From: Escherichia coli
Lineage (GTDB): Bacteria > Pseudomonadota > Gammaproteobacteria > Enterobacterales > Enterobacteriaceae
NCBI RefSeq assembly: GCF_013315695.1
Contig: NZ_CP054353.1
Direction: 5' to 3' (one strand)
DNA: 64,000 nucleotides
Under the pieces are notes generated by a model. That model saw only the letters and a program-made list of their open reading frames with translations, was not told the origin of the DNA and did no database searches. This document shows positions 3,524-51,079 of this stretch, one piece after another; within the stretch, counting starts at the first letter, position 1; the number at the start of each line of letters is the position of its first letter. Position numbers and translations under genes: made by a program.

Positions 3524-3928
3524 ATGAAAACGGTCATCACCTTCGGCACCTTCGATGTGTTTCATGTCGGTCATCTGCGCCTTTTACAACGCGCCCGCAC
3601 GCTGGGCGAACGGCTGCTGGTCGGCGTATCGTCCGACGCCTTAAATATCGCCAAAAAGGGCAGAGCACCGGTTTACCCTCAGGATGACCGCATGTCGATC
3701 ATCGCCGGGCTGGCGTGCGTGGATGGCGTATTTCTGGAGGAATCGCTGGAGCAGAAAGCGGAGTATCTGCGGGGGTACCGTGCGGATATTTTAGTGATGG
3801 GCGATGACTGGGCAGGAAAGTTTGACAGCTTCGCGTATATTTGTGAGGTAGTGTATTTCCCCCGCACGCCGTCGGTGTCGACGACGGGGATTATTGAGGT
3901 GATTAGGGGTAAATCAGCCACCTACTGA
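3524..3928 (+). CDS. Cytidylyltransferase (glycerol-3-phosphate cytidylyltransferase TagD-like, nucleotidyltransferase superfamily)
   Basis: 134 aa; N-terminal FGTFDVFHVGH (HxGH) motif; ATG 2 nt after the lfiJ stop with GGAG upstream, so translationally coupled to the flagellar operon. Confidence 0.75.
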   Translation: MKTVITFGTFDVFHVGHLRLLQRARTLGERLLVGVSSDALNIAKKGRAPVYPQDDRMSIIAGLACVDGVFLEESLEQKAEYLRGYRADILVMGDDWAGKFDSFAYICEVVYFPRTPSVSTTGIIEVIRGKSATY

Positions 3929-3976
3929 TTTAATTCCCGCAGTGAGAGAAGATGATGCCGTTTGGCTATGTTAAAT

Positions 3977-4079
3977 ATGTTTAAAAAATCGCGTTTTTTC
4001 GACATATCCCCAAAACATGTCGATGGCATAAACGTATTCCAACGACATGTTTAAAAATCGCATTTTATCGACATATCCC
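3977..4079. repeat. Two ~34-bp direct repeats (ATGTTTAAAAA-TCGACATATCCC) in the convergent intergenic region
   Basis: Copies at 3977-4010 and 4047-4079, each with an internal ACATGTCGA/TCGACAT inverted motif; the second overlaps the glycosyltransferase stop. Confidence 0.4.
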
Positions 4080-6521
4080 TGACGATTCCTTGCCCGCCAA
4101 CGCCTCCACAATCACCATCGTCGCCCGTTCTCCCGCCTTGCCATCCATAAACGCATCGCAATAGTGATGACGAATCTTCGTAAGCCGCGCCTGCACCGCC
4201 CCCCAGTCAAACGCCTCTGACAACAAGTAACGCAACTCTGCCATATCATGAGCCACCGGCAATATTTCGCGGATTTGCTGATCGGCGCTCTCCGGCGTGG
4301 AGTAGCTTTTCTCGCCGTCGAGCAATTCACTCATGCCCGGAAAGTCGAGCAGGATCACCCGCTTATCAACGTGGATAGCATCGAAAATAAAGCCGCTGTT
4401 ATCGGTCAGCACGTAATCGGCCTTTGCCAGCAGCGCCAGCGTGTGACGGGCGGAGTCGGTGCGCTGTTTTAAATGCCTGCGAGCCAGGGCCAGCGATGCA
4501 GCTTCTTCCGGGCGCGAGCAGGTGCCGTGGTGCAGTTTGCAAATCAGGTTCACATCATCGCTTAAGCGCCCCAATTTTTCTGCCCAGTGGGGCAGGGAGC
4601 TTAATGCGCCAAACGTTGGGGCGTAGAGTACGGTGGGTTTACGCTCGTCCAGTTTGATATTTTCCGGCAACGCGCGGTCGAACGTGGCGTTATGCCAGGC
4701 GTCGAAGCGCGGGTTGCCGACCACTATTGCGTTGCTGAGGTGCGCCAGCGCCTGCTGGCTGTAGTGGCTGTAACACAAAATGCGCTGATAAAAACGGTTC
4801 CAGTCGGCGTGGTTCCACGTTTCTTTGGCTAAGCCGTACATGGCGCGAATGTTCAGGGGGGAAAGGCCACTGAGCGCAGGCGTGTGATAGGGGCTGACCA
4901 GGCATTTTACTCGCTGACCGTGTGCCTGCATTTCTGACAGACGCATACCTTTAAGCTGCGGATCGTCGATGTTTTTCAGTGTTTCCAGCATCTCATCCAG
5001 AAACGGTTTAAACACGCGGTCATTGATCACCAGTGTGCAGCTCTGCCCCTGCGCCTGCAGGGCGGTGATGATTGGGCGGTAGAGCGCGTAGTGGAATGAG
5101 GTTTCCATAAAAAAGCCGATGGTATCGGCGATAGGTAATGTAGATGGCTTGGTGGCTACGGGTAACTTATTGAAGTAGTGGTTAATGTTATCAGTCGCTT
5201 TTTTCTCGATATCACTAAAGCCCGGTCGCTGATAACAAAGGCTCGGGTAACAGGCCAGCCATTTGTCGGTGCGCAGCAGCGGCTGCCAGCCGTCTTCCAG
5301 CGAATGCTCATCGTTGTTCATCTGCTGCGCCAGCTGCGGGTAGTAGCGGCGGTTCACCAGATAAGCGCACACTTTGCGGCAGTCCCGCGCGTGCACCAGC
5401 CCAGGCAAACTTTTTAGCATCGTTCCCTGCGAAATTTCGCCGCCGAGGATCATCACCTGCCAGGGAATTTTCGCCAGGCTCGCCAGCAGCGCGTTCAGCA
5501 CCTGAATATGTTTCTCCTGTTTGAGAATAACCGCGTCATCTTCCAGCAGCAGGTAGTTTTGCCAGCCGCGTTGTTGCGCCAGACGCAGTGCCTGCAAGTG
5601 TGATTGCTGGCGGCCCCGTTGACCGTTTTCATTTTCACTGGCGGCAAGGCGGGTGATCTTCTCAGGAGGAATATGCAGCAATGTGAGTTCTTCACGGATC
5701 TGCTGTAAGCGATCCGGGCGTTTATCCAGATTCAGCAGAACGATCTGATCGATCGCCTGATGATGAGTGGCGTTATGCAGACTCAGATAAGCATTGCGGA
5801 GCAGCGGATCGCGGACGATATCCGTAAGCGTCGCGTTTACTGGCGTGCTGGCCCCGAGAATAAAGTCTTTATCAAAGGTGTTGTGGCTGTGCGAGATACA
5901 CAAAATCGTGCGCTCGCCGGGCAGTTGTAGCGGGTTAACGCTGAAATTGTCGGTGAAACTTTTCTCTTCGCCTAAATTGCAATCGTCATCGTAGCGGTGC
6001 TTTTTCAGGTAGTTACGGTGATAGCAAAAGGTGCCGTTGAGGATGTTATGCGGGCCGAAGCTGCGGCTTTGAAAGATGCGATTGATGTGGCTGTACCAGA
6101 TGGGGATCTGGTCGGAACCGGAGATGAGCGCCCGGTTTTTTTGCATCATAGCGATGGTGTAAGAGATTTTATCTGCCGGGTAGTAGTCGTCATCGTCCAT
6201 GCAGAGGATGTATTCGCCGCGCGCCAGTTCGTTGAGCATATTGCGTTTTTTGCCCAGCGGCAGTTTTTCCGGGTGATGGATGTAGCGGATGTTGAAGGCT
6301 TCCGGTGTGCCATTGGTCAGGCGGTCGATGATGTGTTGATGGCTTTGCGGGGAATCGTCGAGGATGATGAGTTCGCGGCGGTCTGCCGGGTAGTCCTGAT
6401 AGCGGTACATATAAAGCAGGTACGGCAGGAATGCGCTGCGGTTCCAGGTTGGCGTGACGACGCTGACGGACGGTTTTTCGCGCTGGGTGGCGAGTGTTTT
6501 GATAATGGTTGGTGTTGGCAT
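4065..6521 (-). CDS. Large multidomain glycosyltransferase (GT-A family 2-like + GT25-like + CDP-glycerol glycerophosphotransferase-like domains)
   Basis: N-terminal VSVVTPTWNR and CMDDDDYY (DxD) GT-A motifs; central LLNLDKRPDR GT25-like motif; C-terminal TagB/TagF-like region. The ORF track begins at a GTG (6593) inside a repeat, so ATG at 6521 is preferred. Confidence 0.75.
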   Translation of the reverse strand: MPTPTIIKTLATQREKPSVSVVTPTWNRSAFLPYLLYMYRYQDYPADRRELIILDDSPQSHQHIIDRLTNGTPEAFNIRYIHHPEKLPLGKKRNMLNELARGEYILCMDDDDYYPADKISYTIAMMQKNRALISGSDQIPIWYSHINRIFQSRSFGPHNILNGTFCYHRNYLKKHRYDDDCNLGEEKSFTDNFSVNPLQLPGERTILCISHSHNTFDKDFILGASTPVNATLTDIVRDPLLRNAYLSLHNATHHQAIDQIVLLNLDKRPDRLQQIREELTLLHIPPEKITRLAASENENGQRGRQQSHLQALRLAQQRGWQNYLLLEDDAVILKQEKHIQVLNALLASLAKIPWQVMILGGEISQGTMLKSLPGLVHARDCRKVCAYLVNRRYYPQLAQQMNNDEHSLEDGWQPLLRTDKWLACYPSLCYQRPGFSDIEKKATDNINHYFNKLPVATKPSTLPIADTIGFFMETSFHYALYRPIITALQAQGQSCTLVINDRVFKPFLDEMLETLKNIDDPQLKGMRLSEMQAHGQRVKCLVSPYHTPALSGLSPLNIRAMYGLAKETWNHADWNRFYQRILCYSHYSQQALAHLSNAIVVGNPRFDAWHNATFDRALPENIKLDERKPTVLYAPTFGALSSLPHWAEKLGRLSDDVNLICKLHHGTCSRPEEAASLALARRHLKQRTDSARHTLALLAKADYVLTDNSGFIFDAIHVDKRVILLDFPGMSELLDGEKSYSTPESADQQIREILPVAHDMAELRYLLSEAFDWGAVQARLTKIRHHYCDAFMDGKAGERATMVIVEALAGKESSGICR

Positions 6522-6570
6522 GGTGTTTGGGTGAGTTAATGGGTGAATGTGATGAATGTGCGTGCTGATG

Positions 6571-6680
6571 CCCTCACCCCGACCCTCTCCCACAGGGAGA
6601 GGGAGAAAACCAGCGCCGATTTTAACACCGTGCTCGATCGGTTCCCTCGCCCCTTTGGGGAGAGGGTTAGGGGGAGGGGA
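6571..6680. repeat. GC-rich double palindromic intergenic element
   Basis: CCCTCTCCC-ACA-GGGAGAGGG (6583-6603) and CCCTCGCCCC-TTT-GGGGAGAGGG (6644-6666), flanked by CCCTCACCCC and GGGGGAGGGG. Confidence 0.45.
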
Positions 6681-6699
6681 AAAGCGCGCACAGAGCGAC

Positions 6700-7629
6700 T
6701 CACGTCAGCAGCGAAAATGCTGACAGCAGCGGCTCTGCCGCACATAACGACTGGAGCTGCTGGCGAATCGCCGCAGCATTTTCACTCTCTCGCCAGCGTT
6801 CAAACACCGCAAAAAGGGCGAAAATATCCTCCTTCCGCAGCGGTGAACCATCCAGCGTCCATAAACTGATTAACGTGCGGATGAGATAAAAATCACACAC
6901 CAGCGGGCAATAATCTGCTCCGTCTGCCTGCCCAATCACGTCGTGATAAACGCGGTAAATCAGCCAGTTGCGCATCATCCACGGCGCGGCGGCAAAATGC
7001 TGTTGCCAGGTGGTTTGCCACTGCACCTTAAGCTGCTGTTGCAACAAAGCTTCGCTGTTGGCGTCATGCAACGTCAGCAAAGTCACCTGCAACGGTAGCG
7101 AGGCTTTGCGCGGGCTTTCCGGCAAAATCGACCAGTCAAACGCAAAACTCCCGAGCAGCGTCACCAGTTGGCGCGCCAGTTGTGGCACGGGTGGGAGTTG
7201 GGCGAACTGTGCCTGTAGCGTGCCTTTTTGTGCATGATCCCCCAGCGCCTGTGGCAGCGTCGTCAAGCGGGCAAGAATATCTCCGTCTCTGCCCGGCATT
7301 TTACTGGCGCGGGAGAGCAAAATCCCGACGGCATACAGGGAAAGCTCCGGGGTTAAATCGGGGAGCGTAAGGGTGCTCAAAATGGCCTGGTTTACTATCG
7401 CATCGCGCGCGGATAGCTCGGCGGCATTGTCTTCCACAGGGCGGTAGGTGAGCTGTAAATCAAAGGCCCTGGCATCGTTGAGCACCGCTTTGCAACTTTC
7501 AATATCGGTCAATGCCAGGCTCTGGCGAATCTCATTCTTCCAGACCTTGCGGACGTACAAAGGCGAATCGGGATATTGCGTCATAAAATTGCGCACGTAT
7601 TCCGGTTCGTAACATTCAATAAAACTCAT
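6700..7629 (-). CDS. Hypothetical protein (unknown function) downstream of the flgN-like gene
   Basis: ORF track 6700..7668 begins with TTG; internal ATG (MSFIECYEP) at 7629 with a GGAAG-like SD is preferred; no recognisable motif. Confidence 0.45.
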   Translation of the reverse strand: MSFIECYEPEYVRNFMTQYPDSPLYVRKVWKNEIRQSLALTDIESCKAVLNDARAFDLQLTYRPVEDNAAELSARDAIVNQAILSTLTLPDLTPELSLYAVGILLSRASKMPGRDGDILARLTTLPQALGDHAQKGTLQAQFAQLPPVPQLARQLVTLLGSFAFDWSILPESPRKASLPLQVTLLTLHDANSEALLQQQLKVQWQTTWQQHFAAAPWMMRNWLIYRVYHDVIGQADGADYCPLVCDFYLIRTLISLWTLDGSPLRKEDIFALFAVFERWRESENAAAIRQQLQSLCAAEPLLSAFSLLT

Positions 7630-7756
7630 AGGTGGCTTCCAGTCTTTATTACTTTGCGGAATGTGCAATAAGCGTGCCGGGAATTTTTGTAATCAAAAAC
7701 AAGGGATTGAGAATCAGGCGGAAAATCCGTTTCCGCGATGGGGGAAGGAATTGTCG

Positions 7757-8185
7757 TTATTCCTGGTACAGAAAATCTGTTTCGCCGCCTAAAAAAAACT
7801 GAATAAATTCATACTGGCGAATCAACAGCTCGCCGTTTTTGTCGTTGTAGGCTTTGCAGCGTTCCGCTTTTTGCTCAAGGCGTTGCCACAACTGTTGTGC
7901 TGCTGCTTTTTGCACAGCCGGAAGCCAGGCAAAAACCTGCGCCAGACCGTCACGATTTACACTGACATTAAGCATTTTCAGCAGGCTGTGCCGCTGATGG
8001 CTATGCCCATGCAACTGTTCATAGTGCTGCGTTATCTCGTCGTTTACCGCCAGCAGATCTTCGCTGGCGCGGCGAATCATGCAGATCCGCTGACGCTGGA
8101 GAAGTTCGCGCAGGGAATCGTACAGTGCGTCGTCGTCACGAATGCCCTGCAACAACGCCTTCACCTGTTGTAACCGGATACTCAC
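7757..8185 (-). CDS. lfgN: Flagellar chaperone FlgN family (LfgN)
   Basis: 142 aa; position downstream of the flgM-like gene in a flgA-flgM-flgN-like minus-strand operon. Confidence 0.65.
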   Translation of the reverse strand: MSIRLQQVKALLQGIRDDDALYDSLRELLQRQRICMIRRASEDLLAVNDEITQHYEQLHGHSHQRHSLLKMLNVSVNRDGLAQVFAWLPAVQKAAAQQLWQRLEQKAERCKAYNDKNGELLIRQYEFIQFFLGGETDFLYQE

Positions 8186-8197
8186 TTCATCGGCCTC

Positions 8198-8476
8198 TTA
8201 GTTCTGGAAAAAACTCAGCATGTCGCTGGCTAACTGTTCGGTGTCCACTTGCAGGCTGCCGGACGCCAGCATCGCCTGCATTTGCGCCACTTTATCGCTG
8301 TCGATATCGCTCTCTTGCTGGTCGTTCAGCGTTTGCTGGGCAGACTGCAATCCCGCCTGGGTAATGTCGTCTGCGCTCTGCGTAGTGGTGGTGGTCGCCG
8401 TGCTTTTGCGTGGCTGGCTGGAGCCAGCCGTTGTGGCTGTCGGGCGATTGCCTGGCATAGTCGGGGTGATTTTCAT
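8198..8476 (-). CDS. lfgM: Anti-sigma-28 factor FlgM family (LfgM)
   Basis: 92 aa; Ser/Thr-rich N-terminus and conserved C-terminal helical region typical of FlgM. Confidence 0.7.
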   Translation of the reverse strand: MKITPTMPGNRPTATTAGSSQPRKSTATTTTTQSADDITQAGLQSAQQTLNDQQESDIDSDKVAQMQAMLASGSLQVDTEQLASDMLSFFQN

Positions 8477-8556
8477 CGCAACCTCGTCTCGGTATTTAGG
8501 TGGGTTACTCCAGTAAAGCGGTTAACAGGCGGCAAAACTTTAATCGCCTGCGCAAA

Positions 8557-9315
8557 TTACTCCGCGCTTACCGTCGTCACCACGCCGCTTTCTGCCACCC
8601 TCGCGCTAATGACCCGCTGGCTGCTGGCGTTACGCACTTTCACCATCTCGCCCTTACGACCATTTTTCAGCGCCACGCCGGGCATCGAGGCGCTGAGCCC
8701 CGCGCTCTGGTAAACAATCATCACCGGTTGATCGCGCTCGACCAGCACCGGAGATATCAGTTCTTCTTTGGTGATTGGCCTGCCCGGTTGCAGCGCGTGT
8801 TTACTGCTGAAACCAATCGCGTCATTGGGTTCCATCAACACCTCCCGGTGCTGGGCACTGACGTTGTAAGGCTTCAACTCCACATCATTCGCCGTGAGCG
8901 GCGTATCGCGGGCAACCAGTGACTTTGCCATCACCACCGGCACCAGAACATCCGGGCGTACCGCGACGTTCATCTGCCAGCTTTGCGGGCAACTGACGGT
9001 GAAGTTCATCCGGTTGAGGGCGATTTCCGCAGGCGAAGTCAGCGTGACGCCGGGGGCCGTAGCGCAGGGCGTGGCGGTCGCAATCTGCGAGGGAATGTAG
9101 ACCTTAAAGGTGTAGCGATAGTCATGCCACTGCCGTTGTTGCGCCAGCGATTCAATCTGCTGGCTCGCGGCATTCAGCACCTGGGCGTTGACTTGTTCCC
9201 GCGCGCTGTGTTGCACGGGGTGGACGGCGGCGTAGCCCGGTAAGGTCAGCGCCAGGAGGAAATAAAACTTCCGCCTGCAAAATTGAAAACTCATAAACCC
9301 TTTCTCATCAGTCAC
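8557..9315 (-). CDS. lfgA: Flagellar P-ring assembly chaperone FlgA family (LfgA)
   Basis: 252 aa with N-terminal signal peptide; divergent from the flgB-like operon as in canonical flg loci; alternative start at second Met. Confidence 0.7.
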   Translation of the reverse strand: MTDEKGFMSFQFCRRKFYFLLALTLPGYAAVHPVQHSAREQVNAQVLNAASQQIESLAQQRQWHDYRYTFKVYIPSQIATATPCATAPGVTLTSPAEIALNRMNFTVSCPQSWQMNVAVRPDVLVPVVMAKSLVARDTPLTANDVELKPYNVSAQHREVLMEPNDAIGFSSKHALQPGRPITKEELISPVLVERDQPVMIVYQSAGLSASMPGVALKNGRKGEMVKVRNASSQRVISARVAESGVVTTVSAE

Positions 9316-9345
9316 TTAAAAAATGGCACGGCAATTGCTTAGCGT

Positions 9346-9711
9346 ATGCGGATTGAAGCAGGAGTGACGCAGAGAATGGGGATCAGTTTTCAACAAGCAT
9401 TGGGAGTGCATCCGCAGGCAGTGAAGTTACGTCTTGAGAGGACCGAGCTACTGACTGCGAATCTGGCGAACGTCGATACGCCAAATTTCAAGGCTAAAGA
9501 TATTGATTTTGCCAGGGAGATGCAACGGGCAAATAACGCGGCGGTGGATGTCCAGTACCGCGTGCCGATGCAGCCGTCAGAAGATGGCAACACCGTGGAA
9601 CTGAACAGCGAACAGGCACGGTTTTCACAAAATAGTATGGATTATCAAAGCTGTCTGACCTTTCTGAATCTGCAAATCAGCGGCATCAGAGAGGCCATTG
9701 AAGGGAAATAA
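9346..9711 (+). CDS. lfgB: Flagellar proximal rod protein FlgB family (LfgB)
   Basis: Conserved ANLANVDTPNFKAKDIDF and C-terminal DGNTVELN rod motifs; start uncertain (9346 or 9376). Confidence 0.8.
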   Translation: MRIEAGVTQRMGISFQQALGVHPQAVKLRLERTELLTANLANVDTPNFKAKDIDFAREMQRANNAAVDVQYRVPMQPSEDGNTVELNSEQARFSQNSMDYQSCLTFLNLQISGIREAIEGK

Positions 9712-9713
9712 GC

Positions 9714-10145
9714 ATGTCATTTACTGATATCTATCAGATTTCCGGCTCGGCGATGACGGCGCAAACGCTACGTCTGAATACCGTCGCCAGTAACCTGGCG
9801 AATGCTAATGCACCTGCCAGCAGCGAGGCGCAGGCGTATAAAGCGCGCAGCCCGGTGTTTGCGACGGTGTATCACCACAGCTTGCTGGTGGGTACACATC
9901 GTCATGCCATTGATGGTGCCAGCGTGCAGGTGCAGGACGTGCTGCAAACCGGCGGGGCGGTGAAACGCTATGAACCGCATTCGCCGCTGGCGGATGCTAA
10001 CGGGGATGTCTGGTATCCCGACGTCAACGTGGTGGAACAGATGGCGGACATGATGTCGGCCTCGCGCGATTTTGAAACCAATGTCGATGTGCTCAACAAC
10101 GTGAAAAGTATGCAGCAAAGCCTGCTGAAACTGGGAGAAGCCTGA
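9714..10145 (+). CDS. lfgC: Flagellar rod protein FlgC family (LfgC)
   Basis: 143 aa; SNLANANAP N-terminal motif and C-terminal PLADANG...MVDMMSASR motifs; appears full length. Confidence 0.85.
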   Translation: MSFTDIYQISGSAMTAQTLRLNTVASNLANANAPASSEAQAYKARSPVFATVYHHSLLVGTHRHAIDGASVQVQDVLQTGGAVKRYEPHSPLADANGDVWYPDVNVVEQMADMMSASRDFETNVDVLNNVKSMQQSLLKLGEA

Positions 10146-10858
10146 TGAATACCCTGGCGCTGAATGCGCAATCGCCGCAGCCGACCGCCACGGCGGAAAG
10201 CAACAACGTGGCGGCCAGCGACACGACAAGCAGCAGCGATAGCTCGCCCGTTGATACTTTCCTGACGCTGTTTGTCGCTGAGATCCAAAACCAGGACCCG
10301 ACCGACCCGACCGACGCCACCGAATATATCGACCAGCTTTCGTCAATGGCGCAGGTGGCGATGATGGAAGAGATGAGCGTGCAGGCGAATACCAACGCGG
10401 TGTTGATGAGCAACATTCAGGTGATGGCGCTCGGCAACCTGGTGGGCGACGACATTATGGTGCAGACCACCGCCTTGCAGGTGAGTGACCAGACCATTAA
10501 CGGTCGCGCCACGCTGGATGACGCCTGTACCACCGCCGATCTCCACTTTACCGATGCTGCGGGCGATGACTACACCGTCTCGCTGATCCCGGAAGGGAGT
10601 TCGTCGGTTGGGCCAGGCCAGGTCGATTTCTCGATTAATCCGGCGGATTACGGCATCCCGCCGGGCGATTACGACGTCTCGGTGGTGACCAACACCGGGG
10701 AAGAAGAGGTGCCGATTGAAGTCTCCGGCGAAGTGGAAGATGTACGCATCCCGCTCGACGGCAGCTCTCCGGTGCTCAACGTTGCAGGTGTGGGCGAAGT
10801 GCCGTTCACCATGATTAGCCAGTTTGGCGTACCCGATGCCGACAGTGATGTGGCGTGA
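10145..10858 (+). CDS. lfgD: Flagellar hook capping protein FlgD family (LfgD)
   Basis: 237 aa; DTFLTLFVAEIQNQDPTDP N-terminal FlgD motif. Confidence 0.8.
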   Translation: MNTLALNAQSPQPTATAESNNVAASDTTSSSDSSPVDTFLTLFVAEIQNQDPTDPTDATEYIDQLSSMAQVAMMEEMSVQANTNAVLMSNIQVMALGNLVGDDIMVQTTALQVSDQTINGRATLDDACTTADLHFTDAAGDDYTVSLIPEGSSSVGPGQVDFSINPADYGIPPGDYDVSVVTNTGEEEVPIEVSGEVEDVRIPLDGSSPVLNVAGVGEVPFTMISQFGVPDADSDVA

Positions 10859-10869
10859 TGTCTGGTGCC

Positions 10870-10975
10870 AAATTGCCTGATGCGCTTCGCTTATCAGGCC
10901 TACATGAAACTGCAATGTATTGAATCTGCATGGTTTTGTAGGCCGGACAAGGCGTTCACGCCGCATCCGGCAAAA
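10870..10975. repeat. REP/BIME element (two REP units)
   Basis: GCCTGATGCGCTTCGCTTATCAGGCCTAC and GTAGGCCGGACAAGGCGTTCACGCCGCATCCGGCA palindromic units. Confidence 0.7.
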
Positions 10976-11017
10976 CAACGGGCACGCAGTCAAAATTTGA
11001 ATTAACAGGACGAAACA

Positions 11018-13903: not shown

Positions 13904-14569
13904 GTGAAAAATTATCTCTGGCTGGTGGCGCTGCTTCCCCTGCTTAGCGGGTGTGAATCGCAGGCCATTCTGGTCAAAAAAGACGACGCATACTTTGCGC
14001 CACCGAAAACCGAAGCACCGCCTCCGGCAGACGGGCGTGCCGGGGGCGTGTTTGAAACCGGCTACAACTGGTCGCTAACTGCCGACCGGCGGGCTTACCG
14101 CGTGGGCGATATCCTGACGGTGATCCTCGAAGAATCCACCCAGTCGAGCAAACAGGCGAAAACCAACTTCGGCAAAAGCAACACCGTCGATATCGGCGCA
14201 CCGACCATTTTTGGTCACACCAAAGATAAGCTTTCCGGCTCCATCGATGCCAACCGCGACTTTGACGGCAGCGCCACTTCCCAGCAGCAGAACAGCCTGC
14301 GCGGGGAGATCACGGTTTCCGTCCATGCGGTGCAGCCCAACGGCATCCTGGAAATTCGCGGCGAGAAATGGCTCACCCTCAACCAGGGCGATGAGTACAT
14401 CCGTTTAAGCGGTCTGGTGCGCGCCGACGATATCCAGAACGACAACTCGGTTTCCTCCCAGCGGATCGCCGATGCCCGCATCTCCTATGCCGGACGCGGC
14501 GCGTTAAGCGACGCCAACGCCGCAGGCTGGCTGACGCGGCTGTTTAACCATCCTCTGTTCCCGATTTAA
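13904..14569 (+). CDS. lfgH: Flagellar L-ring lipoprotein FlgH family (LfgH)
   Basis: GTG start at 13904 gives a lipoprotein signal peptide with lipobox LLSGC; the ORF-track start at 13829 lies inside a REP element. Confidence 0.85.
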
Positions 14570-15684
14570 TGCCGGAGAGTGCAATGCAAAACTGGATAAA
14601 GGCCGCAGTTATCGCCCTAAGCCTGGCGCTGCCCGGCGTGGCGCTGGCGCAATCGCTGGAGTCGCTGGTCAACGTACAAGGCGTGCGTGAAAACCAACTG
14701 GTCGGCTACAGCCTGGTGGTCGGCCTCGACGGTACTGGCGATAAAAACCAGGTCAAATTCACCAACCAGACCATCACCAATATGCTGCGCCAGTTTGGCG
14801 TGCAATTGCCGAATAAAATCGACCCGAAGGTGAAAAATGTCGCGGCGGTGGCAGTGAGCGCCACGCTGCCACCGATGTACTCACGCGGGCAGACTATTGA
14901 TGTCACCGTCTCGTCGATTGGTGATGCCAAAAGTATTCGTGGCGGCACCTTGCTGCTGACCCAACTGCACGGCGCAGATGGCGAGGTTTATGCCCTGGCA
15001 CAGGGCAGCGTGGTGGTGGGCGGGATGAACGCCACCGGGGCCAGCGGTTCCAGTGTGACGGTTAATACGCCAACTGCCGGGTTAATTCCCAACGGCGCGA
15101 CGGTGGAGCGCGAGATCCCCAGCGATTTTCAGATGGGCGACACCATCACGCTCAACCTGAAACGCCCGTCGTTTAAAGACGCCAACAACATTGCGGCGGC
15201 GATCAACGCCTCGTTTGGCGGCATTGCCACGGCGCAGAGTTCCACCAACGTCACCGTGCGTGCGCCCACCAGCCCCGGCGCGCGGGTGGCATTTATGTCG
15301 CAACTGGATGATGTACAGGTGCAGGCAGAGAAAATCCGCGCCCGCGTGGTGTTTAACTCGCGTACCGGCACGGTGGTGATGGGCGATGGCGTTGCGCTGC
15401 ATGCGGCGGCGGTGTCGCACGGCAGTTTGACCGTCTCGATTAACGAAACCAGCAACGTCAGCCAGCCGAATGCCTTTGCAGGCGGGCGCACGGCGGTAAC
15501 GCCGCAGAGCAATATCGCGGTGAATCATGCGCGCCCGGGCGTGGTGAGTTTGCCGGAGTCGAGCAGCCTGAAAACGCTGGTCAATGCGTTGAACAGTTTG
15601 GGCGCGACGCCGGACGACATTATGTCGATTTTACAGGCGCTGCATGAGGCGGGCGCGCTGGATGCCGACCTGGAGGTGATCTGA
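14569..15684 (+). CDS. lfgI: Flagellar P-ring protein FlgI family (LfgI)
   Basis: 371 aa with signal peptide (alternative start MQNWIK at 14584). Confidence 0.9.
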
Positions 15685-21350: not shown

Positions 21351-22265
21351 ATGTTATCTATTAACACCAATAACGCCTCAATGGCCGCCGTTAATGCAAT
21401 CAGCAAAAGCAGCTCTTCTCTGTCTACATCTATGGAACGCCTGGCAACGGGTAACCGGATTAACTCTTCTGCCGATGACGCAGCGGGCAAACAAATTGCT
21501 AACCGTCTGACAGCACAGTCCAGCGGTATGGGTGTGGCGCTGAGCAACATCAATGATGCCACCGCGATGCTGCAAACCGCCGACAGCATGTTCGACGAAA
21601 TGTCTGATGTGCTGGGTCGTATGAAAGACCTGTCAACTCAGGCAGCGAACGGCACCTACAGCGACGACGACCTGCAGGCGATGCAGGACGAATACGACGA
21701 ACTGGGTCAGCAGATGTCTGACATGCTGCAAAACACCACTTACGGCGGTACCAACCTGTTCGGTGTTTCCGGCACCAGCAACACCGGTACTGACGGCCTG
21801 TTCCAGAGCGCGGTAACTTTCCAGGTGGGCGCGGAATCTTCCGACACCATGACCGTGAACATTTCAAGCCAACTGAACACCCTGGTGACCGATCTTTCTT
21901 CTATCAGCAACTCCTTTAGTGCGGATCAGGCTGACACCACGGGCACCGCAGGTGTTTCTGGCGGTACTGAGCTGACCGCGTCTGGCTCGGCTAACCAGAT
22001 GATCACCAGCATCTCTACCGCGATGGATGATGTTTCGCAGATCCAATCCAAGCTGGGTGCGTCTATTAACCGTCTGAACGACACTGCCAACAACCTGACC
22101 AGCATGCAGAACAACACGGAAGTCGCTATCGGTAACATCATGGATACCGACTACGCGACGGAAGCGTCCAACATGACCAAACAACAGGTGCTGATGCAGA
22201 CCGGCATCACTATGCTGAAACAGTCCAACAGCATGTCCAGCATGGTTTCCAGCCTGCTGCAGTAA
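21351..22265 (+). CDS. lafA: Lateral-type flagellin (LafA)
   Basis: 304 aa; canonical flagellin N-terminus (MLSINTNNASM...LATGNRINSSADDAAG); AAGGAG SD 8 nt upstream of the ATG. Confidence 0.9.
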   Translation: MLSINTNNASMAAVNAISKSSSSLSTSMERLATGNRINSSADDAAGKQIANRLTAQSSGMGVALSNINDATAMLQTADSMFDEMSDVLGRMKDLSTQAANGTYSDDDLQAMQDEYDELGQQMSDMLQNTTYGGTNLFGVSGTSNTGTDGLFQSAVTFQVGAESSDTMTVNISSQLNTLVTDLSSISNSFSADQADTTGTAGVSGGTELTASGSANQMITSISTAMDDVSQIQSKLGASINRLNDTANNLTSMQNNTEVAIGNIMDTDYATEASNMTKQQVLMQTGITMLKQSNSMSSMVSSLLQ

Positions 22266-22341: not shown

Positions 22342-22470
22342 CTGCGGCAGGCCTTTTTCCGCCAGACCGGAAACACCATTTCCGCCCCTTTTTCAATTTA
22401 TTGATTATTCACATAAAAATTATTGGCACGCCTTTTGCCAATAACCTGACATCGTTATCCGGAGTCATCA

Positions 22471-40783: not shown

Positions 40784-40859
40784 GCCGATATAGCTCAGTT
40801 GGTAGAGCAGCGCATTCGTAATGCGAAGGTCGTAGGTTCGACTCCTATTATCGGCACCA
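40784..40859 (+). tRNA. thrW: tRNA-Thr (anticodon CGU), thrW-like
   Basis: 76-nt GCCGATATAGCTCAGTTGGTAGAGCAGCGCATTCGTAATGCGAAGGTCGTAGGTTCGACTCCTATTATCGGCACCA; cloverleaf arms, CGT anticodon, encoded CCA. Confidence 0.9.
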
Positions 40860-41024
40860 TTCAAACATCTCCCCAAGTCTACTAAAGTCTTTCAAAACCC
40901 CTTATAATCCGCGTATTAAAGCCCCGTTCGTCTTTTGACGTCTACTAAAGTCCCTCAAAATCTACGGTCAGATGGGGGTACTTATGGGGGTATTTGCTGT
41001 TCGGTTTAGTGGAGGTACCCCCAA

Positions 41025-42239
41025 GTGAAACTCAATGCCCGTCAAATAGACACAGCCAAGCCAAAAGAGAAGGCTTACAAGCTGGCCGATGGTGGCGGTT
41101 TGTATCTCTTGGTAAAACCTAATGGAGGTAAATACTGGCGACTTAAATATCGTGTAGCTGGTAAAGAGAAGCTATTGGCACTAGGTGTTTATCCTGAGGT
41201 TACTCTAGCCGATGCTCGGGCAAAACGTGAAGATGCGAAAAGAGGTATCGCTGGTGGTATCGAACCGATGGAAGCGAAACGAGAGGAAAAGATTGCCCGG
41301 GAAACGCAGTTAAACAACACCTTCAAAGATATTGCCCTTGAGTGGCACAGCAGCAAATTAAAAAAATGGTCTGCTGGTTATGCTTCAGACATCCTCGAAG
41401 CCTTCAACAAAGATGTGTTCCCTTACATTGGCAAAAAACCCATCGCCGAAATCAAACCACTTGAACTTCTGAATGTGCTGCGTCGCATCGAGGGGCGCGG
41501 TGCTACAGAAAAAGCCAAAAAAGTGAGGCAACGGTGCGGGGAAGTTTTCCGCTATGCAATAGTCACTGGTCGCGCAGAGTATAACCCTGCACCAGACCTT
41601 ACTAGCGCGATGCAAGGCCATGAATCTAATCATTACCCTTTCCTTACAGCCAAAGAATTACCTGATTTTTTCAAGGCATTGTCCAGTTACTCAGGAAGCG
41701 CATTGGTTGTTATGGCGGCTCGTCTACTGATTATCACCGGCTTGCGGACTGGCGAACTACGTGGCGCATTATGGGATGAAATTGATTTCAACAAGGCTAT
41801 CTGGGAGATACCCGCTTCACGTATGAAAATGCGGCGGCCTCATATTGTGCCATTGTCTGAGCAGGCTCTTTCGCTTATTGGGAAGATTAGAGAAATAACA
41901 GGCAATTACCCTCTTATGTTTCCCGGGCGCAATGATCCAAGGAAAACAATGAGCGAGGCCAGCATAAACCAAGTGTTTAAGCGCATTGGCTACGCTGGAC
42001 GTGTAACTGGTCATGGGTTCCGGCACACTATGAGTACGATTTTGCATGAGCAGGGCTATAACACTGCGTGGATAGAAACGCAGCTCGCTCACGTTGATAA
42101 GAACTCAATTCGTGGCACATACAACCATGCGCAATATCTGGATGGAAGGCGGGAGATGCTTCAATGGTATGCCGACTATATGGATTCTCTCGAGCATGGC
42201 GGAAATGTGGTGCATATGGTGTTTGAAAAACACGCATGA
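41025..42239 (+). CDS. int: Tyrosine site-specific integrase (P4-type)
   Basis: 404 aa, GTG start with GGAGG SD; N-terminal arm-binding-type region (GGGLYLLVKPNGGKYWRLKYR) and C-terminal catalytic R-H-R-Y region (HGFRHT ... RGTYNHAQY). Confidence 0.85.
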   Translation: MKLNARQIDTAKPKEKAYKLADGGGLYLLVKPNGGKYWRLKYRVAGKEKLLALGVYPEVTLADARAKREDAKRGIAGGIEPMEAKREEKIARETQLNNTFKDIALEWHSSKLKKWSAGYASDILEAFNKDVFPYIGKKPIAEIKPLELLNVLRRIEGRGATEKAKKVRQRCGEVFRYAIVTGRAEYNPAPDLTSAMQGHESNHYPFLTAKELPDFFKALSSYSGSALVVMAARLLIITGLRTGELRGALWDEIDFNKAIWEIPASRMKMRRPHIVPLSEQALSLIGKIREITGNYPLMFPGRNDPRKTMSEASINQVFKRIGYAGRVTGHGFRHTMSTILHEQGYNTAWIETQLAHVDKNSIRGTYNHAQYLDGRREMLQWYADYMDSLEHGGNVVHMVFEKHA

Positions 42240-42890
42240 AACAACTGGACAAGTATACAGAGGTTTACTAAAGTATAAGGGAGTAGATTGATAAAAACTC
42301 ACAGAGGATTGCTATTTAACAGTTAGCCATGGAGAAGGGCAATCGCTCTTTTAACAACGAAGATGGAATCTTCTACGCAGCTGAAAAGCTGGATGCTCTT
42401 TAACAGCCTTTGGTGCTTTTCTGATGCAGGAAAGAATAGGGATACATGCACCTTTACAATGCATGTAATGATTCATCCATGAGGCTGCGGAGCGCTGACA
42501 AAGCGCAATTGCTCTTTAACATTGATGTGGGCGGGATGGTTCGTCCCGCAGTGACCGATAGATTTCTATCGGGAAACATACAATGATTCAAATATGAATC
42601 TACGGCGCTGACAAAGCGCAATTGCTCTCTTGCCTGCCCACCATGCCCTGAAAAAGGGCGTTCTTTAAAACTACTGGATGTCACGCCTAATAGCGTGATC
42701 CTGCCGAAATGCAGGGTAGCTCTACCCTTGTGGAGCAAACAAACCAAAACAATCTGACTATCTTTTATAAAAGACCGCAATATGTTTTTCATATTGTGGT
42801 CTTTGGCGTATTCGACATTTGACGCAAATAAAACTCTCGCCATTCGTTGCAGGAGGGGGTTATTGCGTCATTAGTACAGGATATTAATAA

Positions 42891-43094
42891 ATGGCTAATT
42901 ACAATTCATTAATTCGTCTCTCTGAAGTTCAAAGGCGAACTGGTTATAGCAAAGCATGGATTTATCGTCTTATTAGTCAGGGGAGGTTCCCTAAACAGGT
43001 AAAAATTGGAAGTCGGGCAATTGCTTTTGTTGAGTCTGAAATAGATGAATGGATTGAGAAGTGTATATTAGAATCTAGAGACGAGGTGGCCTGA
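42891..43094 (+). CDS. alpA: AlpA-family phage transcriptional regulator / excisionase-like protein
   Basis: 67 aa; AlpA signature RLSEVQRRTGYSKAWIYRLISQGRFPKQVKIGSRAIAFVESEIDEWI. Confidence 0.8.
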   Translation: MANYNSLIRLSEVQRRTGYSKAWIYRLISQGRFPKQVKIGSRAIAFVESEIDEWIEKCILESRDEVA

Positions 43095-43525
43095 TGGAAA
43101 AGAAAAACCGCCCATTACAGGCGGCTAATTCAGATATTCGTGTATCTGATGTTACGCCCCTTACAAAATCCCTTCAAGCACCAAAGCGCACACCGAAAAA
43201 GCATCGTGCCAGAGTCTATATGCTGCGTACTGGTATAGAGGGATGGACAGAAAATGACATTCTTCGCTACTGCCGTCTGTCTTCTGGTCGTAACTATGCA
43301 ACAGAGTTAGAACGCCAGCTTGGAATCACTCTGGAGCGTATCGACGAAAAGAATCCTGATGGTATCGGAACACACCTTCGCTACCGTTTCTCCTGCCGTG
43401 GTGATGTTCTGAAAGTGATCACTCATGTTAACCATCTTGCGAACATAAATGATCACAACGGACTTTCTCAGCAGGAAATTGCCGACATTCTGAAACTCTA
43501 CCCGGACGCGTTTAACGCCGCCTAA
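43094..43525 (+). CDS. Hypothetical basic protein
   Basis: 143 aa; begins at the alpA stop; no recognisable motif. Confidence 0.4.
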   Translation: MEKKNRPLQAANSDIRVSDVTPLTKSLQAPKRTPKKHRARVYMLRTGIEGWTENDILRYCRLSSGRNYATELERQLGITLERIDEKNPDGIGTHLRYRFSCRGDVLKVITHVNHLANINDHNGLSQQEIADILKLYPDAFNAA

Positions 43526-43537
43526 CGGAGACTGAAA

Positions 43538-44371
43538 ATGAACATCGAAAAAAGCAGATTAATTTCTGAGGCCGCCCCTCATCTGAACGCCTCTCTGGGC
43601 ACAATTAACGGTAATGAATTTGCCGCAATTGTCCCGGTTATTCCTGGTCATATCGGTGGGCGTGAAACCAATATTGTTAGCGCAAAAGCGTTACACAAAG
43701 CGTTGGGCGTGGGAAAAGACTTCTCTACATGGATCACTGATCGCATCTCTGAATATGACTTCACCATTGGGCACGATTACTCAGTCCATAAAACAATTTC
43801 CCCAAATTTGGGGAAAAGCCCGAATGGCGCGGCTTACAGCAAGATAAAGCACTCTGGCAGACCCGGTAAAGACTATCTGTTAAGTGTCGGAATGGCGAAA
43901 GAACTGGCAATGATCGAACGCAATGATCAGGGTCGCGCTATCCGCCGTTATTTCATCCAGTGCGAGGAAGAATTACAGCGTAGCGTTCCTGAAATCGCCG
44001 CCCGCTATCGTCGCCAGCTAAAAGCCCGTCTCAGTGCCGCAAACAACTTTAAGCCAATGTGCGATGCGCTGAATATGGCCCGTGCCGAGATGGGTAAAAC
44101 GACGCAGCAACACCACTACACAAACGAGAGCAATATGATTTCTCGTATCGTTCTTGGTGGGCTAACTGCTAAGCAGTGGGCGCGGATAAATGGCTATTCT
44201 GGCGAACCTCGCGACCATATGAACGCAGAACAGCTTGAGCACCTCTCATATCTCGAAAGCACCAATATCACGTTAATTGATATGGGCATGGAATATGAGC
44301 AGCGCAAAGGAGAACTCACCCGCCTGTCGCAACGCTGGCTCGCCAAGCGTCTGGAGGCGGTCCATGTTTAA
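43538..44371 (+). CDS. Phage antirepressor-like protein
   Basis: 277 aa; N-terminal SAKALHKALGV...FSTWITDRI block resembles the antirepressor N-terminal domain. Confidence 0.5.
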   Translation: MNIEKSRLISEAAPHLNASLGTINGNEFAAIVPVIPGHIGGRETNIVSAKALHKALGVGKDFSTWITDRISEYDFTIGHDYSVHKTISPNLGKSPNGAAYSKIKHSGRPGKDYLLSVGMAKELAMIERNDQGRAIRRYFIQCEEELQRSVPEIAARYRRQLKARLSAANNFKPMCDALNMARAEMGKTTQQHHYTNESNMISRIVLGGLTAKQWARINGYSGEPRDHMNAEQLEHLSYLESTNITLIDMGMEYEQRKGELTRLSQRWLAKRLEAVHV

Positions 44372-44546
44372 GCCGACAGGAACACCACAACCTCAAAAAC
44401 GCTACAAAGATGCCCACGGAGCACTCGTTACTGTCGAAAGCGTGTCTCACAACCGAGTGACGTTTTATCGCGACGGGTATCAATCGCCATGCGTACAACC
44501 GCTGGCGCGCTTCATGAAGGAGTTCGCGGAGGTTAACAAATGCTAA
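44364..44546 (+). CDS. Hypothetical small protein
   Basis: 60 aa from ATG at 44364 (ATGTTTAA overlap with the preceding stop). Confidence 0.3.
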   Translation: MFKPTGTPQPQKRYKDAHGALVTVESVSHNRVTFYRDGYQSPCVQPLARFMKEFAEVNKC

Positions 44547-45607
44547 CCGTCCAGAAGAAGATATTTTCACTGGCTGGTATGTCACCAAAATCCAGCAATA
44601 TGACAGCAAAGTCTGGCATTAATACAGCAGATACAAGCAAAGTTTATCATTTTCTGGTGGTAGGAGCGGATGCCTTAACTATGTCAGAAATTACGGTCGA
44701 TGGTGTTAGCGTTGAGAAGGTCAGCGGCTGCGCCAGAGAATTTCTGGTCGTAGATGGCTTTCTCTGCTCGCGTAGTGACTCCACAAAAACCTTCGTCCAT
44801 ACGCGCGACGTTAACGAAATGAGCGCGATGTATTGTGCATCTGGTGCTTCCAATACTGAGTTTTCGGAGTCCATAAAAAAGAGCTTGCCGTTATGCGGCA
44901 ACACGGTTTATGGTTATAAGGCACCTCATAAAACGGGTGCCGGGATTGGCGTCCTGAAAATTCTGAAGGCGACATATGACGCGCCGAGCGTCTTTTTTTA
45001 TGTCGTAGGTCTGACTCACCCATTTTTTGGGCGTTGGTGTATAATCCAGCGCCTTTGTCAATCAATGGTGGCTCAGGCGGGGGCTTCTTCGGAAGCGCCG
45101 GTATCCTTCAGAGCCGGTTACGCCAACCCTGTCTGGGCTACCACCAGCGAAATTGGCGTTTCCGGTGGTAGCGTAACCTGCTATCTGAAGGAGGCTGCCA
45201 CATGCTGGCTACTACCCCTACCCAAAAACCGCAATTTATCTGGATTATCGCCGCAGTTCGCCGCGATTGCCCGACAATTACCGCCAAAATTCATCATATT
45301 GCTGCCGAGTCTGAACGCGATGCTCGCCGTTCTCTGGTGCGCGATCACGTCTGCTTTTTTGCTGGTCGTATCCGCATGGAGGTGGCACATGATTAAAACC
45401 TACGATGTGCATATGGATCCCCTCGAACGCACAAGCCAGATCATCACACTGACAGAAGTGATTAACGACATTCTGGTGAGCAACTCTCCCTCACGAGACG
45501 AAAGGCTGAAGGCGTTACTCGCGATATTGGATCTCGCCGTTCGTGACGTTCATTTCCTGCTGGAAGGTGGCGAAATGCCAGGAAAAACGGGGGCAACCAA
45601 TGAATAA
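44540..45607 (+). CDS. Hypothetical ORF, possibly over-called or chimeric
   Basis: 355-aa open frame with heterogeneous composition; the only long open frame over 44.5-45.6 kb; its C-terminal part could be an independent small gene. Confidence 0.25.
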
Positions 45608-45794
45608 CTCAATTAATACCCCTCGCCTTACGTCCGCACTTCAATTAATCGAGCAAGCAGCGGCTGTCCTGGTTGCTGTCAGTCTTTCGGCTGAAGAAAT
45701 GGACGCTGCTGATGTCGTGGATGCGATTAAAGCGTGCTCATCTTTGGTTAACGATGCCCGTGCCGAGCTGGTAATTCTTGGGGGTGAAAAATGA
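45600..45794 (+). CDS. Hypothetical small protein
   Basis: 64 aa from ATG at 45600. Confidence 0.3.
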   Translation: MNNSINTPRLTSALQLIEQAAAVLVAVSLSAEEMDAADVVDAIKACSSLVNDARAELVILGGEK

Positions 45795-46054
45795 ATATCA
45801 ACTTAATTTATCGTCATCCGTGTGAGCTGGAAATTGAATCATTGCTGGGGCGTGAAGAGCCATATCCAGACTCATTCACTCCCGCAGATTGCGCGACTGA
45901 ACGGCTTACCAGAGCGCGCACAGGTCTGGTTCATGTGATGAATGAGATTGTTCCCTCGGTGGGAGGGGAACAGGCGACAGTAATCAATAGCTGGCTACAA
46001 AAAGTTACCTCCCTGATAGATATCGGTTTAATCGATGTGGAGAGTGCGAAATGA
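45791..46054 (+). CDS. Hypothetical small protein
   Basis: 87 aa; overlaps neighbours by 4 nt on the same strand. Confidence 0.35.
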   Translation: MNINLIYRHPCELEIESLLGREEPYPDSFTPADCATERLTRARTGLVHVMNEIVPSVGGEQATVINSWLQKVTSLIDIGLIDVESAK

Positions 46055-46272
46055 CCAACATCCAGCTCATTGAAGCGCAATGTCGCATCGAACAGGTTCA
46101 GACTGTTTTAGGGTTCTGGCTTGAAGGGGCCAGCCCCAGCAACAGAGACAAGTTAATGATTGGCGCGGTTATGTCACTGCTCAATGGCGTACCAGAAGCT
46201 ATTCAGGAAGCGGACGAATTGTTGGGCAAATATGAGTTACAGAATCATTCAGGCGAGGCGAAACATGAATAA
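46051..46272 (+). CDS. Hypothetical small protein
   Basis: 73 aa; 4-nt overlap with the upstream gene. Confidence 0.35.
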   Translation: MTNIQLIEAQCRIEQVQTVLGFWLEGASPSNRDKLMIGAVMSLLNGVPEAIQEADELLGKYELQNHSGEAKHE

Positions 46273-46867
46273 TTTCTTAACTTTCCATGCAGAAGCAACG
46301 CCTGACGGCGTAAACATCATGTACCGCAGCAACGATGGCATGACAGAACGCGTTGAGGCCGTCTCATATATTGATGCCGTAAATCGTCTGGATGCCGGGG
46401 ATTATGACGATAAACCAGATGAAGGTATGTCAATACATCTCGCTATTGCCGATGGCGGCAACCAGGGATATTTCGATTACACATCACAGCATAACGTCAT
46501 TATGTGGAGATGGCTGATCGCAACAGTATTCATGCTGGAAATGAGAGAGGAAAACGGCACTGTCAGCATCATTGATGATACTGGCAATCCTTCCGAAGTG
46601 GCTGTTTATTCCAACGGCATCGTCGCCATGCCGCTGTATCCAGTAGCAGAGCGCCTCGCTATGGCAAACAACATTGAGGGCGCGATGATAGAACGTTTTG
46701 GCATCGAGTCTGGCACAGAACGCGCCATCATTTTCTACAGAGCCATGATGGATGTGGAACAAGGAGCACTGACTCCATTTGGTCGTGAAACGCTTGCTGA
46801 ACTTCACAACAGCTTTATAGCTGAACTGAATGAAAACGGCATGCCAGCGGAACCAGTGACGCACTGA
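46265..46867 (+). CDS. Hypothetical protein
   Basis: 200 aa from ATG at 46265 (MNNFLTF). Confidence 0.4.
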   Translation: MNNFLTFHAEATPDGVNIMYRSNDGMTERVEAVSYIDAVNRLDAGDYDDKPDEGMSIHLAIADGGNQGYFDYTSQHNVIMWRWLIATVFMLEMREENGTVSIIDDTGNPSEVAVYSNGIVAMPLYPVAERLAMANNIEGAMIERFGIESGTERAIIFYRAMMDVEQGALTPFGRETLAELHNSFIAELNENGMPAEPVTH

Positions 46868-46877
46868 GGATGGAGCC

Positions 46878-50326: not shown

Positions 50327-50350
50327 GCTTCTTCATGTGCGTAGAAAAGG

Positions 50351-50774: not shown

Positions 50775-50806
50775 TGCCACCAGCTACTGAGCGGTGGCAT
50801 TTTTTT
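50775..50806 (+). terminator. Rho-independent terminator
   Basis: Hairpin TGCCACC-AGCTACTGAGC-GGTGGCA followed by TTTTTTT. Confidence 0.6.
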
Positions 50807-51063: not shown

Positions 51064-51079
51064 AAATGGATGGCATCGC

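Follow-up and report, generated by a model that had tools for sequence, protein, structure and literature searches.

The DNA studied here is a stretch of 64,000 nucleotides (nt) from Escherichia coli (contig NZ_CP054353.1), referred to below as the window, which carries the Flag-2 lateral-flagella locus. Its minus strand contains lafV, a gene located between flgN and a gene encoding a large glycosyltransferase. Judging from its sequence, LafV descends from the flagellin lysine methylase FliB, and we tentatively favour the view that it is a cofactor-less FliB derivative that partners a flagellin glycosyl/glycerophosphotransferase. A bolder version, possible but held with a little less confidence, is that LafV is a pseudo-enzyme, i.e., a FliB descendant that discarded its catalytic iron-sulfur (Fe-S) module and now serves flagellin glycosyl/glycerophosphotransferases as their flagellin-recognition subunit. 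The "lysine-N-methylase" label of LafV appears doubtful, since every Fe-S cysteine is missing and a glycosyltransferase is its constant neighbor. What is at stake is the annotation itself: the name rests on FliB homology, yet the [4Fe-4S] site that is experimentally essential in FliB is completely missing. LafV is treated as a predicted lysine methylase in PMC6993521 and PMC11420993, and neither its missing Fe-S motif nor its one-to-one pairing with glycosyltransferases of family GT2 is mentioned in these papers or in the annotations. The three genes on which the argument turns are the following:

6700..7629, minus strand: lafV coding sequence, 309 amino acids (aa) plus stop; a soluble, stand-alone FliB_C-domain protein identical to WP_000008087.1.
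4065..6521, minus strand: glycosyltransferase, 818 aa, co-oriented with lafV and directly downstream of it; GT2 domain at aa 20-134.
21351..22265, plus strand: lafA, lateral flagellin, 304 aa, the presumed substrate of the modification module.

According to this proposal, LafV would have given up the Fe-S-dependent methyl transfer of FliB and would act as a non-catalytic partner of the adjacent glycosyl/glycerophosphotransferase. Its task would be to recognise or retain LafA in the cytoplasm prior to export, and the transferase would then decorate the Ser/Thr-rich exposed centre of LafA. The expression of lafV would be under LafK/sigma-54 control, before or together with flagellin synthesis.

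FliB of Salmonella enterica is an S-adenosylmethionine (SAM)-dependent flagellin lysine methyltransferase whose activity needs an oxygen-sensitive [4Fe-4S] cluster, held by an N-terminal CX4CX3CC motif (C17, C22, C26, and C27); the protein has eight conserved cysteines overall, and the C17A/C22A/C26A/C27A variant loses both the cluster and the methylation activity (PMC8598068). The homology of LafV to this enzyme covers FliB residues 1-16 and about 110-400, with the same predicted fold (template-modelling (TM) score 0.83). The first strand (PEYVxxF) is kept and the helical C-terminal 290 residues are retained, while about 85 internal residues that comprise the CX4CX3CC module are deleted. The deleted module and its flanks are the site of all eight conserved FliB cysteines. 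In the alignment, C17 corresponds to T17 of LafV and C22 to S22, whereas C26 and C27 fall in a gap, so that the CX4CX3CC motif is absent. As for the other four cysteines, C79, C88, and C103 lie in the deletion and C125 corresponds to D42. With the cysteine module and the other conserved cysteines missing, a FliB-style [4Fe-4S] cluster cannot be bound by LafV.

Searching 1.84 billion representatives with a profile built from the LafV clade returned 162 relatives with two architectures. The long relatives (about 390-440 aa) are matched from residue about 107 on, and the short ones (about 300-325 aa) from residue 1. When the cysteine motifs were counted in representatives of at least 280 aa, C-x4-C-x3-CC was present at residues about 15-27 in 58 of the 58 long forms, and 24 short forms carried a mini-motif, C-x-C-x2-C. 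The E. coli/Citrobacter clade has no cysteine motif, and the pattern C-x(2-5)-C-x(2-4)-CC was found neither in LafV nor in any other member of this clade. In the mini-motif forms, the counterparts of FliB C22, C27, and C125 persist, and one new cysteine is added. The motif N221-x3-Y225-R-x-Y228-H229-D230 is conserved from FliB to LafV, while the short forms share an invariant polar R35 and N80-Q81 that are not conserved in FliB. In a neighbor-joining tree, built without bootstrap, the short forms group together as a single clade within the long forms, and inside it the cysteine-free proteins again form a single clade. The likely history is thus a full FliB, then a four-cysteine short form, then a cysteine-free short form. 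The mini-motif proteins (e.g., P0105, P0110, and P0122, from Rouxiella, Buttiauxella, Kluyvera, and Pantoea) are the sister group of LafV in this tree; they have in common with it the short architecture, the N-terminal strand, and a Flag-2 or glycosyltransferase context, but their four invariant cysteines could still bind a metal, whereas the LafV of the window has none.

We have rejected the possibility that lafV is an N-terminal truncation or a frameshifted copy of a full-length fliB gene, because the gap between lafV and flgN is only 90 bp, the first FliB strand is still present at the N-terminus, and all relatives share the architecture. A six-frame search of the whole window revealed no open reading frame (ORF) with a cysteine cluster in its Flag-2 part; the one real gene that it yielded is ykgJ. 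The ykgJ gene (62805-63134, plus strand) encodes a 109-aa CxxCxxCC protein with a motif of the type of PF03692, to which Wang et al. compare the cysteines of FliB (PMC8598068). As a supplier of the cluster in trans it was rejected and judged a coincidence, since it is an ordinary, named core gene of E. coli located 55 kb from lafV.

Among the full-length CX4CX3CC relatives, the one closest to the short clade is P0121 (positions 8001-9218 of its locus, L015). It is flanked by a radical-SAM gene beside efp and, at its opposite end, by a Cpn10 (groES-type) gene, and no flagellar gene is found within 8 kb. These non-flagellar surroundings suggest that the FliB family may have non-flagellar lysine targets.

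The main rival, and the reading behind the database name, is that LafV is a lysine-N-methyltransferase of lateral flagellin, in which FliB_C is the SAM-binding and catalytic domain and the Fe-S module was an accessory element (redox-sensing or structural) that could be dispensed with. The homology to FliB over about 290 residues, with a preserved fold, speaks for this reading, as do the shared N221, Y225, Y228, and H229-D230, the identification of S-adenosylhomocysteine (SAH) as FliB product (PMC8598068), and the annotation used by RefSeq and in the Flag-2 literature. We consider it nonetheless less likely than the partner role, because all eight conserved cysteines are missing from LafV, the four-cysteine mutant of FliB is inactive, and FliB activity needs reducing conditions (PMC8598068). 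Moreover, the NCBIfam FliB model (NF038110) scores LafV at 39.2 bits, under half of its curated cut-off of 85, and covers profile positions 106-367 of 373.

The presumed substrate bears on the same question. FliB methylates many exposed lysines of the flagellin domains D2/D3 (PMC8598068), whereas LafA has neither of these domains. Its six lysines are all located in the conserved terminal thirds, which by analogy with other flagellins would correspond to the D0/D1 helices, and residues 100-228 (129 aa) contain no Lys and no Arg and are 29% Ser plus Thr. Among 101 full-length LafA homologues from the genera that carry lafV, the central region has no lysine in 25, one in 41, and two in 26, so that 92 of them have two at most. 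The 4-10 lysines that the homologues keep in total can be counted in favour of a lysine methylase, but the centre of the LafA of the window offers none where FliB would find its targets. LafA, without D2/D3 domains and with no lysine in its centre, is poorly suited to a methylase of surface lysines, while its O-linked modification is plausible.

The second line of evidence is the pairing of lafV with glycosyltransferase genes. We surveyed one genome per GTDB species, using the search alignment A1, since the broad short-form alignment A3 was too diverse, and obtained 24 distinct lafV loci, including loci of Escherichia, Pseudocitrobacter, Citrobacter, Enterobacter, Phytobacter, and Leminorella. 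An orthologue of the large glycosyltransferase is encoded directly downstream of lafV and on the same strand in all 24, at distances between an overlap and a few hundred bp. In loci of the mini-motif clade, it is the gene directly upstream of the FliB_C gene that encodes a homologous GT2 (about 490-500 aa), with a 14-bp overlap in locus L003 and a 4-bp gap in L007. Thus, the adjacency to GT2 outlasts the reversal of the gene order, the GT2 gene being upstream in L003 and L007 and downstream in the 24 lafV loci. In L005, the FliB_C gene is followed by GT2, sulfatase/LtaS-like, TagF-like, and TagD-like genes, and in L006 a TagD-like gene comes directly after the FliB_C gene. The published orthogroup totals likewise run in parallel, with 219 strains for LafV6 and 222 for GT2-1, and 112 for LafV1 and 99 for GT2-3, with one LafV and one GT2 in Rouxiella and two of each in Erwinia. 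Although both lafV and fliB are located in flagellar loci beside flagellin-related genes, the full-length fliB islands of primary flagellar loci are usually solitary and almost always without glycosyltransferases (PMC4875605), whereas the short forms are always accompanied by one. This difference also argues against LafV being a lysine methylase.

A candidate genetic fusion was found as well. P0219 (positions 391-2202 of locus L040, from a metagenome) combines a short FliB_C that lacks cysteines with a PKD-like domain and the amino-terminal half of a GT80 sialyltransferase (Pfam PM0188; E 5e-32 to PDB 2z4t). Its contig has a coverage of 3x and the ORF ends early, so that this protein may be either a natural fusion or an artefact of assembly or frameshift; we take it as a hint, not a proof.

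These results bear on the first-pass annotation of this DNA, which had regarded the protein as an accessory factor of a modification module, e.g., a substrate-specific chaperone or targeting factor, and had suggested a co-occurrence analysis with the glycosyltransferase. The adjacency in 24 of 24 species-level loci provides that co-occurrence and agrees with a role within the module; the chaperone or targeting part is still conjectural.

A known system offers a functional analogy. The flagellin glycosyltransferase FlmG of Caulobacter needs a separate 313-aa helical flagellin-binding domain (PMC7591256). This N-terminal tetratricopeptide-repeat (TPR) domain, which gives FlmG its substrate specificity, resembles LafV in being a mostly helical unit of roughly 310 residues, and the FliB_C of P0219 is likewise fused N-terminally to a glycosyltransferase. 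LafV differs in being normally a separate polypeptide, and its binding to flagellin is predicted; no sequence or fold similarity between LafV and the TPR domain was detected. Should the partner proposal be correct, it would reveal the portion of FliB that handles flagellin, and lafV and the glycosyltransferase gene would be a two-gene system for how cytoplasmic flagellin-modifying enzymes find their substrate, a question answered for Caulobacter FlmG alone in the literature covered (PMC7591256).

The chemistry of the predicted modification is suggested by the glycosyltransferase and the gene beside it:

3524..3928, plus strand: TagD-like cytidylyltransferase, 134 aa, in variable region 1 (VR1); the predicted supplier of CDP-glycerol (CDP, cytidine diphosphate) for the TagF-like domain (PMC6993521).

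Residues 597-723 of the glycosyltransferase are a CDP-glycerol glycerophosphotransferase-like domain (TagF/TagB-like), and a TagD-like gene is found within the fetched stretch in 20 of the 24 loci. From the presence of a TagD-like gene beside a glycosyltransferase with a TagF/TagB-like C-terminal third, we predict a glycerol-phosphate-containing, teichoic-acid-like decoration of lateral flagellin in about a quarter of complete E. coli genomes. The start of the glycosyltransferase gene is annotated at ATG 6521; the start of the longest ORF, GTG 6593, would read through the intergenic repeat described below. If the pseudo-enzyme version of the proposal holds, FliB_C would be the flagellin-binding domain of the whole FliB family, the methylase label would be wrong for the LafV proteins of roughly one in four complete E. 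coli genomes and for those of related Enterobacterales, and enterobacterial lateral flagellin would bear a teichoic-acid-like glycerol-phosphate glycan instead of methyl groups.

The pairing could also mean that LafV is catalytic on a target other than lysine, e.g., that it methylates or tailors the glycan or glycerol-phosphate attached by the neighboring transferase. This would fit the strict association with glycosyltransferases of different families (GT2 and GT80), the conserved pocket-like motif, and the R35 and N80-Q81 that are invariant and specific to the short forms. We regard it as improbable, given that there is no precedent of the FliB family acting on sugars, that Pfam-A and fold comparisons gave no recognisable methyltransferase or other catalytic fold in LafV, and that VR1 regions needing glycan methylation have ordinary FkbM or class I methyltransferases (PMC6993521).

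A third alternative detaches LafV from the glycosyltransferase. As a flagellin-handling factor it could time or gate the export of LafA, or act as a regulator, its placement in VR1 merely reflecting the tolerance of this region to insertions. lafV indeed adjoins flgN and flgM and has its own sigma-54-type promoter, and FliB has been reported to receive FliS-bound flagellin near the membrane. Such a role leaves unexplained the GT2 adjacency in either gene order and the P0219 fusion; furthermore, about 42% of Flag-2 loci lack both genes, and Flag-2 expression or function has been reported in Yersinia enterocolitica and Plesiomonas shigelloides (irrespective of their lafV status). We therefore give this explanation little chance.

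Several observations weigh against the partner role that we favour. The binding and activity of LafV are predictions throughout. FliB_C might itself be the catalytic domain and the cluster a structural or regulatory element: since the FliB reaction yields SAH (PMC8598068), it is compatible with an ordinary SN2 transfer. The N-x3-Y-R-x-Y-H-D motif, kept from FliB to LafV, resembles a ligand pocket more than a surface for docking. LafA still has six lysines, and the adjacency could reflect two independent modification enzymes in one operon. The pattern of divergence points in the same direction. LafA (homologues P0245-P0364) is 91% identical between E. coli and Citrobacter rodentium and 77% identical to that of Leminorella, whereas the modification genes diverge faster (40-56% for LafV and 51-71% for the glycosyltransferase); this much faster evolution of LafV relative to its presumed substrate can also be read in favour of a methylase. 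Comparing positions 9900-10980 of the Escherichia fergusonii locus L009 with positions 6700-7720 of the window, lafV and its promoter form a gene-sized divergent segment, with 64% aa identity for LafV and saturated synonymous divergence (dS), whereas the flanking flgN and glycosyltransferase show 95% and 93%. This points to an allele replacement of lafV alone; a swap of the whole VR1 cassette was rejected, because only lafV is divergent. The mosaic of E. fergusonii and the gap between LafA and LafV identities thus give no sign of tight co-evolution of LafV with either partner. Across 26 loci, the identity of LafV correlates with that of the glycosyltransferase, FlgN, FlgM, FlgA, FlgB, and FlgC at 0.87-0.93 in every case, and these values do not discriminate between partners since phylogeny drives the signal.

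A last alternative, that LafV is a decaying and functionless remnant of fliB, might be suggested by the loss of the cofactor module, the frequent degradation of Flag-2 in E. coli, and the existence of some truncated lafV copies. It is already contradicted by the selection analysis and appears extremely improbable. Of 5426 complete E. coli genomes, 1278 carry lafV, and in 1277 of these the gene has its full length. A comparison of four E. coli alleles gives a ratio of nonsynonymous to synonymous divergence (dN/dS) of 0.16-0.29 at an unsaturated dS of 0.14-0.36, a range similar to that of flgA, flgN, and the glycosyltransferase gene. The architecture and the promoter are conserved across at least 24 species, and 48 residues are invariant in the LafV clade. 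The AlphaFold2 model of LafV, made with the family alignment, is confident (per-residue confidence (pLDDT) 93 and predicted TM score (pTM) 0.91) and shows a helical body preceded by a small beta/alpha part at the N-terminus (residues 3-64). A search of AFDB50 with this structure returned family members alone, the TM score of 0.83 given above being that to full-length FliB models. Together with the 95 homologues found in a search of 5.8 billion proteins, these data establish that lafV is more than a chance ORF; it is a real, conserved gene under purifying selection. The allele of the window is a minority one, with 32 genomes at an identity of at least 99%.

As regards its identity, the gene is not new as an object. 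The locus comprises fliG-fliJ, flgN/M/A, flgB-L, lafA, fliD/S/K/L, a FliA-type sigma factor, motA, and lafU, followed by dinB, and is the Flag-2 lateral-flagella locus of E. coli. On the minus strand the order is flgA (8557-9294), flgM (8198-8476), flgN (7757-8185), lafV, and the 818-aa glycosyltransferase gene (4065-6521), and the order along the window is fliJ, tagD-like, glycosyltransferase, lafV, flgN, flgM, and flgA. lafV is thus located in VR1, between lfiJ (fliJ) and lfgN (flgN), as expected for a LafV. VR1 was defined in PMC6993521, where the proteins encoded there and "previously termed LafV" are predicted N-lysine methylases orthologous to FliB, and where LafV-type proteins are reported in 342 of 592 Flag-2 loci. 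The ORF is therefore lafV, a gene already named and surveyed. Its product matches the LafV1-LafV10 orthogroups (De Maayer et al., 2020; PMC6993521) in position, size, and sequence, and is probably of the LafV6 type (311 aa, Enterobacteriaceae; PMC6993521). With 309 aa it falls within the size expected of a FliB-like LafV (about 300-318 aa), and it is close to the named proteins. Its identity is 83-93% to the proteins of Escherichia and Pseudocitrobacter, 51-57% to those of Citrobacter and Phytobacter, and 40-46% to more distant ones, and the E. coli proteins with 88-100% identity are named lysine-N-methylase or lateral flagellar associated protein. The region 4000-9400 is 100% identical to E. 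coli MSB1_4I, in which the gene is annotated as a 309-aa "hypothetical protein" (WP_000008087.1).

In this regard, a protein of a further locus (L010, positions 3716-4645) is named "lysine-N-methylase" by RefSeq in strain 2014C-3075 but "hypothetical protein" in others with 2-3 residue differences, a split of names which indicates that the RefSeq naming rule is at its threshold for the LafV family.

The first-pass annotation had placed the ORF between a flgN-like gene and the large glycosyltransferase gene on the same strand, and the coordinates confirm this. It had called the product an unknown protein, which no longer holds, since LafV is a FliB homologue described in the Flag-2 literature (PMC6993521) and often annotated as lysine-N-methylase. 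Its statement that there are no recognisable motifs is half right: a Pfam-A scan of LafV gave no match even at E 10, and a PDB sequence search gave a chance match alone (E 1.8), but nearly all homologues carry FliB_C (Pfam PF27117) in the precomputed annotation, the profile matches extend over FliB residues about 107-400, and there is the sub-threshold match to NF038110. The remote-homology search and structure prediction that it had proposed as checks led to the FliB family and to the model described above, and the ORF, whose absence from related loci would have spoken against it, is conserved in the 95 homologues and the 24 species-level loci.

The proposed length of 310-322 aa needs a correction, although the ORF is real. 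The minus-strand ORF 6700-7668 has 322 aa when counted from a TTG start, but this TTG (7668-7666) belongs to the -12 element of a conserved sigma-54-type promoter. The true start is ATG 7629, which yields the 309-aa form: it is the start used by RefSeq, all 22 aligned homologues start at its equivalent, with MSxIECYEPEFV, and a GGAAG motif precedes it by 6 nt. The two signals upstream of lafV are:

7636..7640, minus strand: GGAAG, Shine-Dalgarno-like, 6 nt before ATG 7629, as read from the sequence.
7664..7679, minus strand: sigma-54-type -24/-12 promoter CGGCACGCTTATTGCA, ending 34 nt upstream of the ATG, with an exact GGCAC-N5-TTGC.

lafV has its own conserved sigma-54-type promoter. The argument rests on the position of the motif and on its conservation across loci, not on its count: the window contains three exact GGCAC-N5-TTGC motifs versus 1.05 expected, and 10 of 100 shuffles reach three, so that the number alone is not significant. 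A comparable element precedes lafV in 26 of 28 loci, and the two exceptions have almost no spacer between flgN and lafV. Besides the motif at lafV, the 64 kb contain just two exact matches, at 9325-9338 and 22425-22438 (both plus strand); they are directly upstream of flgB and fliD/lafB, respectively, in the correct orientation, and are likely the LafK/sigma-54 promoters of two further Flag-2 operons. A protein with a sigma-54 interaction domain is encoded in the Flag-2 locus just upstream of the window, and we infer that the lafV promoter depends on LafK.

Two further elements lie in the spacers on either side of lafV:

7718..7736, minus strand: hairpin GCGGAAA-CGGAT-TTTCCGC, just past the flgN stop.
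6557..6692, unstranded: GC-rich imperfect palindromic repeat of 136 nt with 51-nt arms that are 73% complementary, filling the spacer between lafV and the glycosyltransferase gene.

The hairpin is a possible flgN terminator or attenuator before the lafV promoter, and it is kept in E. fergusonii although the DNA downstream of it has diverged. The repeat is probably a dispersed intergenic repeat of E. coli, since part of the region 4000-9400 has matches in 4816 of 5426 E. coli genomes, the median number of sites being 6; the repeat is not present at the equivalent site in E. fergusonii or Citrobacter. A search of Rfam around the locus gave nothing credible.

Elsewhere in the window, flgI (14569-15684, plus strand) is intact, with 371 aa, whereas it is annotated as a truncated pseudogene in the otherwise identical MSB1_4I. 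This difference indicates that the window comes from a strain other than MSB1_4I, possibly one that, differing from it, is Flag-2-competent. Downstream of Flag-2, the region at about 40800-57650 begins with a tyrosine integrase gene (41025-42239) beside a tRNA-Thr gene, followed by phage-like genes that include a TOPRIM/DUF927 primase (47567-50326) and a frameshifted DNA-ejection gene, and then by two copies of the insertion sequence IS1 (53641-54144 and 57144-57647) and a truncated ecpC. This region looks like a satellite-prophage-like island with damage mediated by insertion sequences.

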